From contig NZ_JAPNKD010000014.1 in NCBI RefSeq assembly GCF_026626585.1, positions 221,207 through 285,206 on the forward strand: DNA of 64,000 nucleotides, in the 5' to 3' direction. Below are positions 6,447 through 62,012 of the stretch, piece by piece; positions within the stretch are counted from its first letter, which is position 1, and every line of letters starts with the position of its first letter. The notes below the pieces were generated by a model. It was not told the origin of the DNA. It ran no database searches and saw nothing but the letters and a program-made list of their open reading frames with translations. This stretch comes from Nannocystis sp. ILAH1. GTDB taxonomy: Bacteria; Myxococcota_A; Polyangia; Nannocystales; Nannocystaceae. The position numbers were made by a program, and so were the translations under genes.

Positions 6447-6499
6447 GGGGCTGTCCGATCGGCCAGGTTTGTTCGGCCAGGTGCTCGGGAGCAGGTGCC

Positions 6500-6537
6500 G
6501 AGGGACATGCCCGTGAGGACATGTCCCTCAGGACAGC
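6500..6537. repeat. REP-like palindromic element pair (GAGGGACATGCCC / GAGGACATGTCCCTC)
   Basis: 10-bp perfect inverted repeat GAGGGACATG...CATGTCCCTC; family member of RRRCATGYYY elements. Confidence 0.6.
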
Positions 6538-22798: not shown

Positions 22799-22846
22799 GG
22801 GACATGTCTGTCACGACATGTCCACCGCGACATGTCCTTCAGGACT
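22797..22846. repeat. REP-like cluster: three GACATGTCC palindromes spaced 13 bp in a 40-bp convergent intergenic gap
   Basis: GAGGGACATGTCTGTCACGACATGTCCACCGCGACATGTCCTTCAGG read directly. Confidence 0.65.
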
Positions 22847-31183: not shown

Positions 31184-31708
31184 GGGGCGAAGGATGCGCG
31201 AGCGCGGGCGAGCGGCGCAAGAGGTGGGGACCGGGGCCGGCGGCGCCCACGAGCTGTCCTCGGAGACATGACCCTCCGGACTCGCGACGGGCGCGGCGCC
31301 GGCTGGGTCGGACGCGGCGGTCGTGATGGGACTTACGCGCGCACGAACGATCTTCGAGAGGATTAGGGATTTTCGTGAGGATCGGGAGGTGCGGGAATTG
31401 CTTGCGGAAGCGGCAGATGCGGCGTCGCTCCGGGCTGCGATTCACGGTGACGAGTCTCCGCGCGGAGAGGGTCGCCGGGAGTTCGCTGCCGAGGAGGCAG
31501 GCGCGCACGACGGCGGGCTCCGCGAGGCCGAGGCTGACCGAAGAGGCAGGTTCAGGTCGGATCGGCCCGAAGATGCTCCGGGGCGACGCGCGGGCCCGCT
31601 CGTGGGCAGCCGACAGGACCGGTCTGGGGCCGGCCGGCGCTGCACCGTCATGGGGCGACGAACCAGGAATTGCGGACGGCCTCGGCGGCCGCGAGCGAGG
31701 AGAAAAGT

Positions 31709-32944
31709 ATGCTTAGAACATGGTATATTGGACATGTCCTTGGATTCATGGCTGTTGTGACAGGTTGCGATCCGAAGGACCCGGGGGTCACGGGCGGGAC
31801 GCTCAGCGCGGGGACGACCACGGGCGGGAGCGACAGCGACGGGACGTCGGGGGGCGGCGGGACTGACAGCGAGGGGACGACCGGCGTGCCGGAGACGACC
31901 GGCGGACCGGACGAGACGACCGACGATCCGGGCGACGCGACGACCGAGACGACATCGGGAGGGCACGACACCGACTCGGGGTCGACGCCGGAGGACTTCG
32001 CGTGCGAGGGCGGCGCGTGGCTGTTCGTCAATCCGGAGACCAGCGGCGCGGGCAAGGTGTCGCTCGCGGCCGACGGGCGGGCGCGGGTGTTCAGCGACGG
32101 TCTGACGCGCGAGTTCGACGCGGCAGGGACGCTGGTGGCGACATTGCCGATCCCGTCGGGTGCGATCTACTGGGACATCGACGCGGCGGGCAACGGCTAC
32201 GCGATGTTCCGCGACGAGGGCGGCGTGTCGCCGCGGAAGTGGCTGCGCAAGTTCGACCCGGCGGGGACGATGCTGTGGGAGAGCGACCTGGGACCGAGCG
32301 ATCAGGGCTTCTGGTCGGGCTACGGCGTAGCGATCGCGGTCGACGGGACGACGGTGTACAGCGACCGCGCTGCCGTCGGCGACGGGACGCGGATGGTCAA
32401 GCACGCGGCCGACGGGACGCTGCTGTGGGACCTCGAGGTCGCGGACCAACTCGAGGTGGCGGCGATCGGGTCGGCGGGCACGATGGTGGCGTTGGTGTGG
32501 AACGAGGGCGTCCGGCTGCTCGACCCGTCCGGCGAGGAGCTGTGGACGCGCCCGTGGGAGCTCTCGGTGCTCAGCACGGCGGCGATCGACGGCGCGGGCG
32601 CGGTGGTGGTCGGGGCTCAGATCGGGTCGTCGGGAGTGAGGATCGGGAAGTTCGCGGCCGACGGGACGCCGCTGTGGGACACGCATGTCGAGGACATGTG
32701 GAGCTTCGGCGACCTCGCGGTCAACGCGAGCGGCGAGATCGCGGTCGGCGGCCACCACAACAACGACACGCCGTTCCGCGGGATGGTGGCGCGGCTCGAC
32801 CCGTCCGGCGCGACGCTGGCGGCGCACCGCTGCGACAGCGGGTCATGGGAGGTCGACGTGGCGATCGACGACGCGGGGACGATCTTCGCGTCCGGCGCGG
32901 TCGACTTCGAGACCTATCACATGTACGTGACGGCGTACGAGTGA
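31709..32944 (+). CDS. lipoprotein with Thr/Gly-rich linker and beta-propeller-like repeats
   Basis: MAVVTGC lipobox; repeated DGT.LW / ADGTPLWD strand motifs. Confidence 0.55.
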   Translation: MLRTWYIGHVLGFMAVVTGCDPKDPGVTGGTLSAGTTTGGSDSDGTSGGGGTDSEGTTGVPETTGGPDETTDDPGDATTETTSGGHDTDSGSTPEDFACEGGAWLFVNPETSGAGKVSLAADGRARVFSDGLTREFDAAGTLVATLPIPSGAIYWDIDAAGNGYAMFRDEGGVSPRKWLRKFDPAGTMLWESDLGPSDQGFWSGYGVAIAVDGTTVYSDRAAVGDGTRMVKHAADGTLLWDLEVADQLEVAAIGSAGTMVALVWNEGVRLLDPSGEELWTRPWELSVLSTAAIDGAGAVVVGAQIGSSGVRIGKFAADGTPLWDTHVEDMWSFGDLAVNASGEIAVGGHHNNDTPFRGMVARLDPSGATLAAHRCDSGSWEVDVAIDDAGTIFASGAVDFETYHMYVTAYE

Positions 32945-32946
32945 GC

Positions 32947-33142
32947 CACAGGTCGAGGAGCTCGCGGCAGGCCGGCCGGCTGCCGCGAGCTGGCTCGAAG
33001 GACAGGTCGCGTGGGGCCGTCAGCGGCATGGCTGACGCCGCAGCGAAATGCCCTTCGGGACATCTGACATCGCAGGGCCGACGCCGCAGCGAGATGTCCT
33101 GAGGGACAGATATCGTCACAGGTCGAGGAGCTCGCGGCAGGC
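32947..33142. repeat. 26-bp exact direct repeat (CACAGGTCGAGGAGCTCGCGGCAGGC at 32947 and 33117) flanking a ~145-bp insert carrying REP-like motifs and an internal ~30-bp duplication
   Basis: read directly; second copy is the 3' end of the M3 peptidase CDS. Confidence 0.6.
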
Positions 33143-34822
33143 GGCGGCGGCCCGGCGCACGGTGCTGCGATCTGTCCCGAAGTTCAGACCGGCGGCGGCG
33201 AACAGGTCGGGCAGGCGGGCGCGGGCGCCGAGGGCGAGGGCGCGGCGGAGGTCGGCGACGGCGGCGGCGGGCTCGGCGAGCGCGCGGCGGTGGAGTTGCA
33301 CTGCGCCGAGGCCGGCGATCGCGTACTCGATGTAGTAGAAGGGCAGCTCGAACACGTGCAGGCGACGCCCCCACAGGGCGGCGCGGTCGGCCTCGAGGCC
33401 GCTCCAGTCGACGCCGGGGCACAGCCGCCCGTGCTGCGCGAGCCAGGCGGCGTCGCGAGCCACACGGTCGCTGGCCTCGTCGGGGCGGGTGTAGACCCAG
33501 TGCTGGAAGGCGTCGATGGCGGCGGCGTGCGGGAGGAACAGGACGAGCTGCTCGAGCTGGTGGCGCGCCGCGCGGGTGCAGGTGTCGGCGTCGTAGAAGG
33601 CGCCCAGGTGAGCGGCGGCGAGCAGCTCCATGCCCATGCCGGCGACCTCGCAGAATTCGATCGGGGGTTGGCGGTTCCAGATCAGCGCATCGCCGGCGCA
33701 GGCGAGGGCGTGGAAGGCGTGGCCGGACTCGTGCAAGACGGTGAGCACGTCCTCGTGGCGGCCGACGGCGCCGGCGAACACGAAGGGGAGGCCGCTGGCG
33801 TGGAGGTGGACCTGGAAGGCGCCGGCGGCCTTGCCTGGCCTCGACATCAGGTCCAAAAGGCCATGTTCGGCGAGGCGCGAGAACTGGCGGGCGAACTCGG
33901 GGTCGACGGCCTCGAAGGCGCGGGCGCAGCCGGCGATCAGCGCCTCCTCGCGGGTGAACGGGACGAGCGGGCCGCCGGGAAGGGCCCCGAGGTCCCACGG
34001 GCGCAGGACGTCGAGGCCGAGGGCGGCGGCGCGGCGACGGAGGACGAGGCCGGCGAGGGGGACGAACTCGGCGGCGATGGCCTCGTGCAGCGCGAGGCAG
34101 TCTGCGGGGCCGTAGGCGAGGCGGTCGAGGCGGCGGAAGCGATAGGCGCGGTACTCGGGCAGCTCGGCGGCGGCGGCCTGGGCCCTGCGGTTGTCGAGGA
34201 GGCGGTCGAACAGGTGGTCGAGCTCGGGCTTCACTGCGCGGAACTCGGCCGCGACCGTGCGCCAGGCGGCCTCGCGCCGCGAACGGTCAGGGTCGTCCTC
34301 GCTGCGCTCGACGTGGGCCAGCGGAGTGTCGGCGCCGTCCCAGGGGAACCGCATGCCGGCCCGCAGCTGGCCGTAGGCAGCGCACAGGTGCTGCTCGGCG
34401 GCCTCGAGCGGGACGAGGGCGGGACGGTGGAGGTCGGCCTGGTTGCGCAGCACCGCGAGGGCGCAGGCGTGGCCGGGCGGGAGGCGAGCTGCCGCCGGGT
34501 GCTCGACGAGCCGCCGCGTGAGGCCGTGGCGCAGCGGTTTGCAGGCGGGGCCGAGGACGTCGACGTGGACGAGCCAGGCGCGCGCAGCCTCGGGCTCGTC
34601 GGCGCTGCAGCTGGTGGCGATCTGTCGCCGCGCCTGGGCCTCGGCGAGGTGGCTCTCGAGCTCGGACCAGTCGCGTAGCCATTGCTCGAGGATCCATGGA
34701 TCGTCGGCCGGCAACGGTCGCGCGCCGAGCTCGCCGTAGCAGGCCTCGAGATCGGCGAGCCGATCGAGGCGCACGCGCGCGGGCAAGTAGCGCCGCGGCG
34801 GCGGCGGGAGCGAGCCGAACAC
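33116..34822 (-). CDS. M3 family oligoendopeptidase (PepF-like)
   Basis: HESGHAFH zinc-binding HExxH, ~568 aa. Confidence 0.8.
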   Translation of the reverse strand: MFGSLPPPPRRYLPARVRLDRLADLEACYGELGARPLPADDPWILEQWLRDWSELESHLAEAQARRQIATSCSADEPEAARAWLVHVDVLGPACKPLRHGLTRRLVEHPAAARLPPGHACALAVLRNQADLHRPALVPLEAAEQHLCAAYGQLRAGMRFPWDGADTPLAHVERSEDDPDRSRREAAWRTVAAEFRAVKPELDHLFDRLLDNRRAQAAAAELPEYRAYRFRRLDRLAYGPADCLALHEAIAAEFVPLAGLVLRRRAAALGLDVLRPWDLGALPGGPLVPFTREEALIAGCARAFEAVDPEFARQFSRLAEHGLLDLMSRPGKAAGAFQVHLHASGLPFVFAGAVGRHEDVLTVLHESGHAFHALACAGDALIWNRQPPIEFCEVAGMGMELLAAAHLGAFYDADTCTRAARHQLEQLVLFLPHAAAIDAFQHWVYTRPDEASDRVARDAAWLAQHGRLCPGVDWSGLEADRAALWGRRLHVFELPFYYIEYAIAGLGAVQLHRRALAEPAAAVADLRRALALGARARLPDLFAAAGLNFGTDRSTVRRAAAACRELLDL

Positions 34823-34924
34823 GTGCGCCAGAGTAGCACCGCGGCGCGCGGGCGCAGGAGGCCGAACCAGCTGCTGAGGGGCAGGAGCAGGAACAAGGCG
34901 ACGTCCGGCGGGTGCGTACGTGAG

Positions 34925-35471
34925 ACTGTGAGAAGGGCAGGACGTCGTCAGGCAGGCTCAGGCGTGCGGCGGACATCTCGGGGGCGCGCGCGGGAGGCTG
35001 GTCGAAAGGACAGGAGCTCGACGTGCAGGCTCCGAGTTCCGCGTGAGATGACGCCTGCAGCACGCGCGTGATGGTCGAAAGGACAGGTGTGCTTCGGGCA
35101 GAGTCCGAGTGCCCAGTGAGGTGACGTCCGAGGAGCGCGCGTGAGGCTGGTCGAGAGTACAGGTGTGCGTCGGCAGAGTCCGAGTTCCGAGTGAGGTGAC
35201 GTCGGCGAAGCGCGCGTGAGGCTGGGCGAGAGGACAGGAGGGTGCCGGGCAGAGTCCGAGGTCCGAGTGAGGTAGCGATGCGACCGGTACCTCGGCGGTC
35301 TCGAGAGCACGTGAGGCTGGTCGAAAGGACAGGCGCTGTGTCGGGCGGACTCCGGGTTCCGCGAGATGACGTCGCTAGAACGCGCGAGAGGCTGTTCGAA
35401 AGGACAGGACCTCAGGAACAGGTGAGGCGACGTCCTGAGGGCGCGCGTCTGAGGCTGGTCGAGAGGACAGG
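34925..35471. repeat. tandem array of ~7 degenerate ~77-bp units, each with conserved core GTGAGGCTGGTCGAAAGGACAGG
   Basis: unit starts near 34994, 35071, 35148, 35225, 35315, 35392, 35455; intergenic between M3 peptidase and TetR gene. Confidence 0.75.
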
Positions 35472-36095
35472 TCAGTCGGGGCGCAGGCCGCGGGACATCG
35501 CGCCGATGGTGAGCTCGATCTCGCGGTCGTCGTCCCACGGGTAGTCGGGCAGGATGGCCAGGCGCGTGATGATGTAGCCGCCCAGGGCGCTCATGAGGAG
35601 CCGCAGGACGGTCTCCGGGGGGTCGTTCCGGATCTGTCCGCGCGCCTGGTACTTGCGGATGACTGCCAGCAGCTCGGGGATGACGTGGCGGCCGATGTGG
35701 CGGAACACCATCGTCCGCAGCTCCGGGCTGAGCGGGACTTCTTGTAAGAAGATCCGCAGCGCCGGCACGTGCTCGCGCGCGACCGCGAGGCGGTTGCGCG
35801 CGAACTCCCGCAGGAATTCGGCGAAGTCGGGGTAGTCGGTGTCGATCAGCCGGTGCAGGTCGCGGAAGGCGATGGGCGCGAGCACCCGCTCGACGAACGG
35901 CTCGAGGATGTGGTCGAGCAGCAGCTGCTTGGTCTTGAAGTGGCGGAAGATCGTGCCCTCGGCGACGCCCGCCCGCCTGGCGATCTCGCTGGTCGCGGCG
36001 CCTCGAAAGCCGCGCTCCGCGATCACTTCGATCGCGGCGCGGACGATGCGCTCGACGCCGCGCACCGGCCCTGGATCGTCTTCGCGCGTGGCCAT
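35472..36095 (-). CDS. TetR family transcriptional regulator
   Basis: HTH SEIARRAGVAEGTIFRHFKTKQLLL; divergent from monooxygenase. Confidence 0.8.
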   Translation of the reverse strand: MATREDDPGPVRGVERIVRAAIEVIAERGFRGAATSEIARRAGVAEGTIFRHFKTKQLLLDHILEPFVERVLAPIAFRDLHRLIDTDYPDFAEFLREFARNRLAVAREHVPALRIFLQEVPLSPELRTMVFRHIGRHVIPELLAVIRKYQARGQIRNDPPETVLRLLMSALGGYIITRLAILPDYPWDDDREIELTIGAMSRGLRPD

Positions 36096-36187
36096 GACCC
36101 CGAGAGCTTGGCCTGAGTGAGCACTCACTTGCAACCGTCCTGGAGCCGTGGCACGGTGAGTGAGCACTCACTTGCAGGAGCGGAGCG

Positions 36188-37750
36188 ATGGCGTCGATCG
36201 ATGTGCTGGTGGCAGGAGCGGGGCCCACGGGCTTGACGATGGCGTGCGAGCTGCGGCGGTTCGGGCTGACGGTGCGGGTGGTCGATCCCGCGCCGCGCAC
36301 GACCGAGCACTCCAAGGCGCTGGTCGTCCACGCGCGCACGCGCGAGGTGTTCGAGGCGATGGGGCTGCGCGCGGCGGTCGAGGCCGAGGCCGAGGCGCTG
36401 ATGGCGGTGCAGCTGTACTTCGAGACGCAGCTGCTGGGGACGCTGGACGTCGCGCGGTTCGGGCCCGACGTGCCGCGGCCGGTGTTCCTCGATCAGAGCG
36501 CGACGGAGCGGATCCTGGCCGAGCACCTGGGGCACCTCGGCGGCGCGGTCGATCGCGGGCTGCGGCTGCTGTCGTTCCGCGACGAGGGCTCGCAGGTGGT
36601 GGCGACGATCGGTGGCGACGACGGTCGCACCGAGTCGGTGACTGCGCGCTGGCTGGTCGGCTGCGATGGTTCCCACAGCGCGGTGCGTCACGGCCTGGGT
36701 CTGCCGTTCGAAGGTTCTGCCTATGAGGACATGTTCGATCAGGCAGATCTGAAGATCCGCTGGGACCGCCCGCCAGGGCTCGGCTGCGGGTTTCTGCGGC
36801 CCGCGGGGCTGGTGGTGTTCGCTCCGTTGCCGCGCGGTCGCTATCGCATCATCGCCATGGGCGGCGACGGTCACGGGCCCGAGCCGACGCTCGAGATGTT
36901 CCAGAAGCTGGCCGACGAGCTGGTGCCCGGAGCGGTGCTGTACGACCCGGAGTGGATCCTGCGGTTCCGCCTGCACCACCGCATGGTGCCGAAGATGGGC
37001 GTGGGGTCGGTGTTCCTCGCCGGCGACGCGGCGCACATCCACAGCCCCGCCGGCGGCCAGGGGATGAACACGGGGATCCAGGACGCCTTCAACCTGGCGT
37101 GGAAGCTGGCGATGGTGGCCCGTGGCGCGGCTCGCCCCGAGCTGCTGGCGACGTACGACGCGGAGCGATTGCCGGTGGCGAGAAGGACGCTCGAGATGAC
37201 GGACCGCCTGTTCCGCGGCGCGACGAGCCGACGGACGATGATGCTGCGCAAGCTGCTCGTCAGCACGGGGCTGCGATCACGCGCGCTGCAGCAACGGATG
37301 GCGCGGCGCATGTCGCAGACGGGCGTGTCGTATAGCGAGTCGCCGGCGGTGATCGACGCTCGCAGCTGGCCGCGGCGCTCGCCGAAGGCCGGTGATCGAG
37401 CGCCGGCGGCGATGCTGCGCGCGGGCGATGCGACGGTGTCACTTCACGCGCTGGTGGCGAGCGAGGCGAAGATGACGCTCTTGCTCATGCACGGATCGTC
37501 GCGCTCGCAGGCGCTGGCGATCGCGGGTCGGGAGCTGGCGGAGAAGTGGGGCCGATCGCTGGTAGTTCGCGACCTGGTCCTGGGTACAGGCGACACGGAG
37601 ACTCTCGGCGATCCTTCGGGCGCAGTGGTCCGCGGGTGGAGAGTGCGCGCGCCTGAGCTCATGCTGCTCAGGCCCGACGGCCACATCGCAGTGCGAGCGC
37701 CGCTGGCTCGCATCGAGGTGCTGCGGGCCTACGCAGCGCGCTGGTTCTAG
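36188..37750 (+). CDS. FAD-dependent aromatic-ring monooxygenase (PheA/TfdB family)
   Basis: DVLVAGAGPTGL (GxGxxG), DG.HS, GDAAHIHSPAGGQGMNTGIQDA motifs. Confidence 0.8.
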   Translation: MASIDVLVAGAGPTGLTMACELRRFGLTVRVVDPAPRTTEHSKALVVHARTREVFEAMGLRAAVEAEAEALMAVQLYFETQLLGTLDVARFGPDVPRPVFLDQSATERILAEHLGHLGGAVDRGLRLLSFRDEGSQVVATIGGDDGRTESVTARWLVGCDGSHSAVRHGLGLPFEGSAYEDMFDQADLKIRWDRPPGLGCGFLRPAGLVVFAPLPRGRYRIIAMGGDGHGPEPTLEMFQKLADELVPGAVLYDPEWILRFRLHHRMVPKMGVGSVFLAGDAAHIHSPAGGQGMNTGIQDAFNLAWKLAMVARGAARPELLATYDAERLPVARRTLEMTDRLFRGATSRRTMMLRKLLVSTGLRSRALQQRMARRMSQTGVSYSESPAVIDARSWPRRSPKAGDRAPAAMLRAGDATVSLHALVASEAKMTLLLMHGSSRSQALAIAGRELAEKWGRSLVVRDLVLGTGDTETLGDPSGAVVRGWRVRAPELMLLRPDGHIAVRAPLARIEVLRAYAARWF

Positions 37751-38992: not shown

Positions 38993-39064
38993 CAAGAGGG
39001 CATGTCCGTAAGGGCATGCCCTCTTGAACATGCCCGAAGGGGCATGTCCTTGGGGTCATGGCCC
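38993..39064. repeat. REP-like cluster: five RRRCATGYYY units incl. a 15-bp stem hairpin CAAGAGGGCATGTCC-GTAA-GGGCATGCCCTCTTG
   Basis: read directly; convergent gap between DLH and PepSY-TM genes. Confidence 0.7.
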
Positions 39065-39637
39065 GCCGGACAGGGTCACGTACAGCACGGGGACGGCGAT
39101 CCCGAGCAGGACGAGCACGCCGCCGCGGCCGACCAGGCCCTTGCGGCCGGGCAACATGAACAGGCCCGAGGCGGCGAGGAACAGCAGGAACACGGCGTAG
39201 CCGTCGGCGATGTAGGTCCAGGCCTTCTTGCCGCGGTTCAGGTGCAGCCAGTTGGCGACGCGCAGCAAGAGGCGCGGGCGCTGGCCGTCCTCGAGGACGA
39301 CGCCGCTGTCGAGGTCGACGTGGAGGGTGCTGCCGTCGAGGAGGATCGACAGCTCGCGCGCGTCGCTGCGGTAGACCTCGGTCGGCGGGTCTTGGATGGA
39401 GAGCTCGGCGAGGACCTTGTCGGCGGCGGCGCGGTCGTCCTCGGGCAGCGGCACGGCGACCTGGTGGCGCGCCTCGTAGTTGTCGAAGTTCGGGTCCCAG
39501 TCGGCGATGTGATTGACCGCGAGGCCCGACAGCGCGTAGACGAAGGTGAGGCCGACGGCGACGTAGCCTATGTCGCGGTGGAGGGCGCGCAGCCAGGGCC
39601 GCCAGCGGACCGGGCGCCGGCGCTCGGGCTCAGGCAT
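39056..39637 (-). CDS. PepSY-associated TM helix membrane protein
   Basis: three TM helices with PepSY_TM-like spacing; start overlaps stop of the MsrP-like gene. Confidence 0.55.
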   Translation of the reverse strand: MPEPERRRPVRWRPWLRALHRDIGYVAVGLTFVYALSGLAVNHIADWDPNFDNYEARHQVAVPLPEDDRAAADKVLAELSIQDPPTEVYRSDARELSILLDGSTLHVDLDSGVVLEDGQRPRLLLRVANWLHLNRGKKAWTYIADGYAVFLLFLAASGLFMLPGRKGLVGRGGVLVLLGIAVPVLYVTLSGGP

Positions 39638-53032: not shown

Positions 53033-53108
53033 GAGGACAGGTTTAAAAGGACATGCTCGGTGGAGCATGTCCTCTTAAAAATGTCGGAGAGGACATGGCC
53101 GGATGGCC
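53033..53108. repeat. REP-like cluster incl. 16-bp stem hairpin TTAAAAGGACATGCTC-GGTG-GAGCATGTCCTCTTAAAA with unusual AT-rich flanks
   Basis: read directly. Confidence 0.65.
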
Positions 53109-53111
53109 AGG

Positions 53112-59733: not shown

Positions 59734-59740
59734 GCCGCTG

Positions 59741-59862
59741 TCCCGCGGGACATGGCCTGCGGGACAGATAGCAATACCCCGAGAGCGCGGATGGCTCTCG
59801 GGGCATGGCAAAAAGGTCAGGTTCGATGGGGCATGTCGCAGAGGACATGCCCGAAAGGTCAC
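59741..59862. repeat. REP-like cluster with >=3 hairpins (GTCCCGCGGGAC palindrome; CCCCGAGAGC-GCGGATG-GCTCTCGGGG; GGGCATGTC-GCAGAG-GACATGCCC)
   Basis: read directly; convergent gap. Confidence 0.65.
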
Positions 59863-61977: not shown

Positions 61978-62012
61978 GATTGAAAGGACATGCCCTGAAG
62001 GACATGTCTTGA
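61978..62012. repeat. REP-like pair GAAAGGACATGCCC / GAAGGACATGTC
   Basis: read directly. Confidence 0.55.

Follow-up and report, generated by a model that had tools for sequence, protein, structure and literature searches.

A variable-copy minisatellite that probably grew from a REP-like element at a TetR stop codon in Nannocystis

A tandem array was found at positions 34911-35471 of the window, by which we mean the whole 64,000-nt stretch of Nannocystis DNA that was analysed. The array lies between the genes for a TetR/AcrR-family regulator and an M3-family peptidase. The reading that we prefer, and hold to be probable, is that it is a lineage-specific minisatellite of variable copy number that grew from a single REP-like intergenic element at the TetR stop codon. 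Its role would probably be that of an intercistronic spacer or terminator.

The window has a G+C content of about 71%. On the - strand the order is TetR/AcrR regulator, array, M3 peptidase. The regulator (35472-36095; Pfam TetR_N, 2.1e-15) is 207 aa long in its orthologues, and its ORF is open to 36167 in the window. The protein is 97% identical to one of N. pusilla and 92% identical to the N. exedens counterpart; an exact look-up found no record of the window's own version. The peptidase, downstream of the array (33116-34822; Pfam Peptidase_M3, 6.3e-29), has 568 aa from a GTG start at 34822. Its orthologue was called at 568 aa as well, and conservation across the orthologues begins at this GTG. 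An FAD monooxygenase gene is divergent from the TetR gene. The further neighbours are ordinary chromosomal genes, including those for a malate/lactate dehydrogenase, an M28 peptidase, a dienelactone hydrolase and a response regulator. A Pfam scan of the neighbouring ORFs found no cas or reverse transcriptase (RT) genes around the array, and an association with a retron was rejected since the neighbourhood has no RT genes. The GC skew of the + strand is positive nearly window-wide, and the cumulative skew climbs steadily.

The original prediction, made from the letters of the sequence, had placed here an array of seven units of about 77 bp. The array itself was borne out by TRF, which reported a period of 75, 3.8 copies, 80% matches and a score of 336 for the best-kept part (34986-35273). 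Self-alignment also revealed a periodicity beyond the short core: the self-match at lag 75 was 0.458, compared with an all-lag mean of 0.294 (sd 0.03), which is more than 5 sd above. No 14/15-nt sub-period inside the unit was seen in the self-match analysis. The modal period is 75 nt (range 63-95) rather than about 77. Seven good cores were present as predicted, but an eighth, degenerate copy at 34920-34941 has to be added. The cores start at 34920, 34992, 35065, 35141, 35216, 35311, 35386 and 35449, giving spacings of 72, 73, 76, 75, 95, 75 and 63 nt. All eight are on the + strand, in head-to-tail units. The final core ends at 35471 and adjoins the TetR stop codon (35472-35474, tca on the + strand), so that, read from the TetR gene, the array begins at its stop codon. 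This exact end had been predicted. The array does not fill the whole 650-bp gap, as had also been claimed, but occupies 561 of the 649 nt between TetR and the peptidase. The non-repeat remainder is 88 nt (34823-34910) beside the peptidase start and has a conserved promoter-like motif inside. With head-to-tail units of tens of base pairs and a significant periodicity, the array has the organisation of a minisatellite or VNTR.

The 23-nt core GTGAGGCTGGTCGAAAGGACAGG has six matches at ≤3 mismatches, all within the array, where none is expected. The conserved core of the original prediction therefore stands. These six copies differ by 0-3 of 23 positions, and the seventh (35065-35087) has a 3-nt deletion. 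Unit u0 (34911-34985) is the oldest and is degenerate; it contains the core-like GTGAGACTGTGAGAAGGGCAGG at 34920-34941 and is, by alignment, common to N. pusilla L019. Units are otherwise labelled W for the window, P for N. pusilla and E for N. exedens, and W0b is 77-80% identical to P0b. Unit u1 (34986-35060) is a core (34992-35014) with a 52-nt linker. The core with the deletion belongs to u2 (35061-35134), to which u3 (35135-35209; core 35141-35163) is 85% identical. Unit u4 (35210-35305; core 35216-35238) is 95 nt long because of an insertion of about 20 nt close to its 3' end. The core of u5 (35306-35380; core 35311-35333) matches the consensus exactly. Unit u6 (35381-35440; core 35386-35408) is short, has a different linker and is homologous to P1 of N. 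pusilla. The terminal unit, u7 (35441-35471), is a core alone (35449-35471) against the TetR stop, the counterpart of the single core found in relatives.

The remainders of the units had been described as variable. Instead, the linkers repeat too, with 52-86% pairwise identity among W1-W5 and the highest value, 86%, for W2/W3. Like a CRISPR array, the locus has direct repeats at regular intervals, here of about 75 nt. Unlike in a CRISPR array, the apparent spacers recur, and the repeats themselves are degenerate. Since the linkers recur and no cas genes are nearby, the array is not CRISPR, in agreement with the original prediction. A coding repeat was rejected as well, because units spaced 73, 76 and 95 nt apart would shift the reading frame. 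Also rejected as coding was the long - strand ORF at 34948-36339, which overlaps TetR out of frame on a strand that is stop-poor and C-rich.

The copy number was compared across 12 loci with the TetR-to-M3-peptidase arrangement, this window included. Six loci (L009 from N. radixulma, L022, L023, L025, L037 and L038) have one core in a 45-nt gap with the layout TGA-CCTGTCCTTTCGACCAGCC-tccgRaccGGTGCTACCyy-N7-GTG. In these, a single 19-nt core, CCTGTCCTTTCGACCAGCC on the gene-sense strand, directly follows the stop codon, and a -10-like motif and the GTG come next. Two loci have one core and additional unique spacer, L021 with a 139-nt gap and L024 with a 100-nt gap. N. pusilla (L019 and L020) has three units in a 268-nt gap, N. 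exedens DSM 71 (L011) has seven in a gap of about 550 nt, and the window has eight. The copy-number comparison that the original prediction had proposed as a check thus gave a series of 1, 1 plus spacer, 3, 7 and 8 units. Copy number at one locus varies among related genomes, as in a VNTR.

A tree of the TetR proteins orders this series. All loci with an array fall into one clade; those with spacer only are basal to it, and the single-core loci are its sister clade. Window units u0, u6 and u7 match the three units of N. pusilla, and u1-u5 are additional. Units are most alike within a genome: identity is 63-85% among W1-W5 and 70-81% among the regular N. exedens units (E1, E2a, E3-E5), compared with 53-74% across genomes. 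This likeness within genomes points to concerted evolution or separate expansions. The starting state would have been a single core in a 45-nt gap right after the TetR stop. In one clade, the gap first gained spacer and then a core-plus-linker unit of about 75 nt, now present in 3, 7 or 8 copies. Such an array could originate by duplication of the core plus adjoining sequence, and later units may have been gained and lost through replication slippage or unequal recombination between cores.

The composition of the gap suggests what such an array might do. On the TetR-sense strand, the 649-nt gap has a C/G ratio of 1.3-2.4 per 78-nt segment, and about half of these segments exceed 1.7, the window-wide 95th percentile (median 1.0). 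GC skew reaches its window-wide maximum, 0.29, over the array and its flank (34750-35600). When the units were folded on both strands, they did no better than shuffled sequences (z +0.25 to +1.8), and the stability of whole-region folds, again on both strands, was not beyond that of shuffles; the gap in fact folded worse than its shuffled versions. For 10 units taken from two species, the RNAalifold consensus reached -7 kcal/mol, with -0.13 for the covariation term, which is essentially none. An Rfam search of 34000-36500 at a permissive E-value returned only a spurious match to the HOTTIP lncRNA (E 0.096). G-quadruplex motifs with G3 runs were absent from the array. The terminator scan found one weak hairpin only, at 35409-35428 (- strand) within u6, and no sigma-70 promoter was found in a scan of the array. 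On the TetR-sense strand the core forms a poor hairpin of 3 pairs, so a REP-style role as a stabiliser is doubtful. A C-rich, G-poor RNA past a stop codon that is predicted to be unstructured is the hallmark of a Rho-dependent terminator region, and the gap appears to have it.

The peptidase appears to have a start signal of its own. An extended -10-like motif, TGcTACTCT (34830-34838, - strand), is situated 7 nt upstream of the peptidase GTG and downstream of the array, which is wholly upstream of it. The string GGTGCTACyyT, 7 nt and GTG is invariant in 10 orthologous loci with variable surroundings, and has the form TGnTAnnnT. An extended -10 at this distance from the GTG suggests a leaderless mRNA. 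Transcription through the array would then give the TetR mRNA a long 3' extension that is C-rich, G-poor and poorly folded. Such a tail would favour Rho-type termination and thereby uncouple TetR transcription from the peptidase, whose own -10 element would drive its expression, probably on a leaderless mRNA. Termination, its dependence on Rho and the leaderless start of the peptidase mRNA are all read here from sequence features. The selected part would be the core, either as a 3'-end element of the TetR transcript or as a protein-binding site. The amplification itself is probably close to neutral, because relatives manage with one core. Since these single-core species have a gap of only 45 nt, the extra units must be dispensable for both genes.

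How much of the array is under selection separates our preferred reading from its strongest rival. This is a purely neutral minisatellite, in which the units have no function and are a product of slippage that the non-essential intergenic gap tolerates. We consider it possible, with a chance clearly below even. Single-core relatives keep the same flanking genes around their 45-nt gap, and there is free drift in copy number, in the length of the units (63-95 nt) and in linker sequence, all as expected under neutrality. The array also gave no fold, promoter or Rfam signal. However, in the arrays the core is far better kept than the linkers, and it is invariant across the single-core loci. By counts read from a printed alignment of these six, 0 of 19 positions of the core vary, whereas the non-coding stretch beside it varies at about 7 of 26 positions and the 3' end of TetR at about 5 of 60. 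Arrays also persist in two diverged species.

The core has relatives throughout the window. A window-wide family of 10-bp palindromic boxes, GGRCATGYCC, at a spacing of 14 nt, forms 29 clusters in the 64 kb with 2-6 boxes each, one of the best examples being at 6461-6537. TGTCC-N4-GGACA occurs 11 times in the window where 0.02 are expected, and two-box matches at 14-nt spacing occur 71 times where 1.95 are expected. The position profile over 67 GGACAKG sites reads ATGYCC-N4-GGACAKG-YCC with a further box 14 nt on, and the box pair can be written as GGACATGTCC. Multi-box clusters, for example those at 22800-22837, 38998-39074, 51148, 53035-53111, 55404, 59737-59852 and 61986-62009, start mostly 0-30 nt past stop codons, with the distances taken from a crude GC3-based gene map. 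These are abundant, short, imperfect and extragenic palindromes, the features by which REP elements are recognised. The box family has the look of an element specific to the genus, either REP-like or terminator-like. With two boxes in degenerate form, the array core, cTGgTC-GAAA-GGACAGg, belongs to it, which agrees with the original prediction of a minisatellite built on a REP-related core. Distant TetR orthologues with a different downstream gene have a box-like element directly after the stop (L026) or about 50 nt downstream (L039). An unusually AT-rich stretch with box motifs (…aagtatgcttagaacatggtatattGGACATGTCCttggattcatgg…) was seen at 31700-31760, in the interval that separates the divergent M28 peptidase gene from the following gene on the + strand, while boxes usually follow stop codons.

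The exact 19-mer core also occurs at other loci in several Nannocystis species, singly or as doublets, in either orientation to the genes and several times beside stop codons. Among the exact-core matches, only one N. exedens locus has a large array, so a claim of a general array family is without support. In a Nannocystis metagenome-assembled genome (L013, 2007-2051), the core was seen as 21-nt tandem repeats, CCTGTCCCTGCGGCCAGCACG twice and then CCTGTCCTTTCGACCAGCCCG twice, in a high-GC3 ORF. This may be an in-frame intragenic copy that encodes a Pro/Ser/Thr-rich linker.

A bolder reading takes the core and the GGRCATGYCC boxes together as sites recognised by a so far undescribed Nannocystis system for marking the 3' ends of genes. 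A non-canonical terminator is one form that such a system might take, and an end-of-gene signal bound by a protein is another. On this view, the 1-8 copies of the array would form a natural dosage series of the signal that tunes how far TetR transcription is insulated from a leaderless peptidase promoter. We think this unlikely.

The single-core loci raise another question, which concerns the position of the core. There its TCGACC precedes the -10 motif by 17 nt, where a -35 element would sit, so the core may belong to a promoter instead of serving as a 3'-end element. No -35-like element was found at the corresponding position in the array-bearing genomes. The 19-bp core could be the site of a sequence-specific DNA-binding protein other than the adjacent TetR. 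The array would then be an amplified binding platform whose multiplied sites, in front of the peptidase promoter, serve activation, repression or titration. The recurrence of the exact 19-mer at unrelated loci in several species speaks for a binding site, as do its invariance at the orthologous locus, its conservation despite a weak hairpin and its place at -35 in the single-core loci. Yet at its other loci neither the distance of the core to gene starts nor its orientation towards them is constant, and several copies are found between genes that converge. Where an array is present, the -10 motif is separated from the closest good core by more than 170 nt. The core-binding protein is purely hypothetical, and we give this platform only a slim chance.

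The original prediction had offered three readings of the array: a hot spot of element insertion, a regulatory site array and a structured RNA locus. None of them was supported, the regulatory array being judged as one for the adjacent TetR. Repeated insertion of a small core-targeting mobile element (MITE/REPIN-like) would fit a core that is dispersed in the genus and occurs in direct doublets 51 nt apart at L004 and L010. However, neither terminal inverted repeats nor target duplications mark the units. The linker sequence is absent elsewhere in the window and in about 250 kb of other Nannocystis DNA, and no other copy of the complete core-plus-linker unit was found in the same 250 kb. No transposase was among the 16 ORFs of the window (about 23.7-41.9 kb) that were scanned against Pfam. 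Since the linkers are unique to the array, the units run head-to-tail and neighbouring units are the most alike, local duplication is favoured over repeated insertion, which we regard as very improbable. A scan of metagenomes for tandem cores found only unrelated actinobacterial coding repeats and low-GC arrays. Three metagenome contigs (L029, L031 and L033) carry unrelated arrays with a G+C of 0.45-0.67, 65-80-nt periods and GGTCGAAAGGACAGG-like words. Four others (L030, L032, L034 and L035) have 54-nt coding repeats in actinobacterial-type genes, which are likewise unrelated to the Nannocystis array.

A site array for the adjacent TetR was judged by where its operator lies. The perfectly palindromic operator-like site TGAGTGAGCACTCACTT is present in two copies 43 bp apart (36114-36131 and 36157-36174, + strand) in the divergent region between TetR and the FAD monooxygenase. 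The pair is kept in that position in 11 orthologous loci, distant and array-less ones included, and is likely the TetR operator. It was found only at 36114-36174 and at the equivalent position of the orthologues. The array holds half-sites at most, GAGTGAG (6-7 nt at most) in W2-W4. The least probable reading of all, that the units are tandem genes for small RNAs, a structured RNA (NsiR1-like) or operators of the neighbouring TetR, can point to a layout that resembles tandem sRNA arrays and to this half-site, but the half-site is absent from the N. exedens units, the full operator pair is elsewhere in every orthologue, and the units have no promoter-like and terminator-like signals of their own, no stable or covarying fold and no credible Rfam match.

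With these alternatives weighed, the preferred reading of a minisatellite grown from a REP-like element can be set beside known repeat systems. In its organisation the array is closest to the staphylococcal STAR elements, and MIRU-type VNTRs are also close. STAR elements of Staphylococcus aureus have a short direct-repeat core with at least 40 nt of recurring locus- or lineage-specific sequence between copies; their loci lie between genes and can grow or shrink, and no function is known for them (PMC3532100). The Nannocystis array likewise combines a dispersed short core of 19-23 nt with recurring locus-specific linkers of about 52 nt, and ranges from 1 to 8 copies between relatives. Unlike in STAR, the core is a degenerate palindrome of a wider box family, and one large array locus was seen for it; the core sequence and the organism are also unrelated.

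MIRUs of Mycobacterium tuberculosis are tandem units of 46-101 bp at intergenic loci of a GC-rich genome, with a copy number that varies between strains (PMC3914561). The array resembles them in lying between two co-oriented genes and in starting at a stop codon. Supply et al. (1997) reportedly found MIRUs to be frequent between genes of the same orientation, in contact with the stop and start codons on either side. Full MIRU units are found at 41 loci, whereas here only the short core is dispersed and not the whole unit. Small ORFs over the flanking stop and start are not found here either: spacings of 73, 76 and 95 nt break the reading frame, so the array, unlike MIRU, has no coupling mini-ORF.

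Dispersed short palindromic intergenic elements that follow gene 3' ends, sometimes clustered between tandem genes, are a likeness to enterobacterial REP and BIME sequences. BIMEs are composed of REPs that alternate in orientation (PMC2817692). In contrast, the cores of the array are all direct. The weak hairpin of the array core also differs from REP, and the GTAG/CGTC tag of the published REP superfamilies was not recognised by eye in the repeats. REP locations differ between strains. In E. coli, the REP325 cluster between yjdM and yjdN was recently reported to be a partially Rho-dependent terminator and an mRNA stabiliser. The proposed insulation of the peptidase from TetR read-through by the array would mirror this case. 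We therefore file the array as a REP-derived intergenic VNTR that is a member of no named family.

The array is ordinary in kind and reveals no new kind of system. A literature search on repeats in Nannocystis or other myxobacteria found nothing relevant. To our knowledge, such repeats are undescribed in Nannocystis, whose genomes are 11-12 Mb. With 1 to 8 copies among relatives, the locus forms a clean natural series that would capture the birth of a minisatellite from a single REP-like element at a stop codon. The array could be used as a marker for strain typing. It would also be a convenient test case for REP-like 3'-end elements as Rho-assisted insulators between tandem genes, a role recently argued for E. 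coli REP325.
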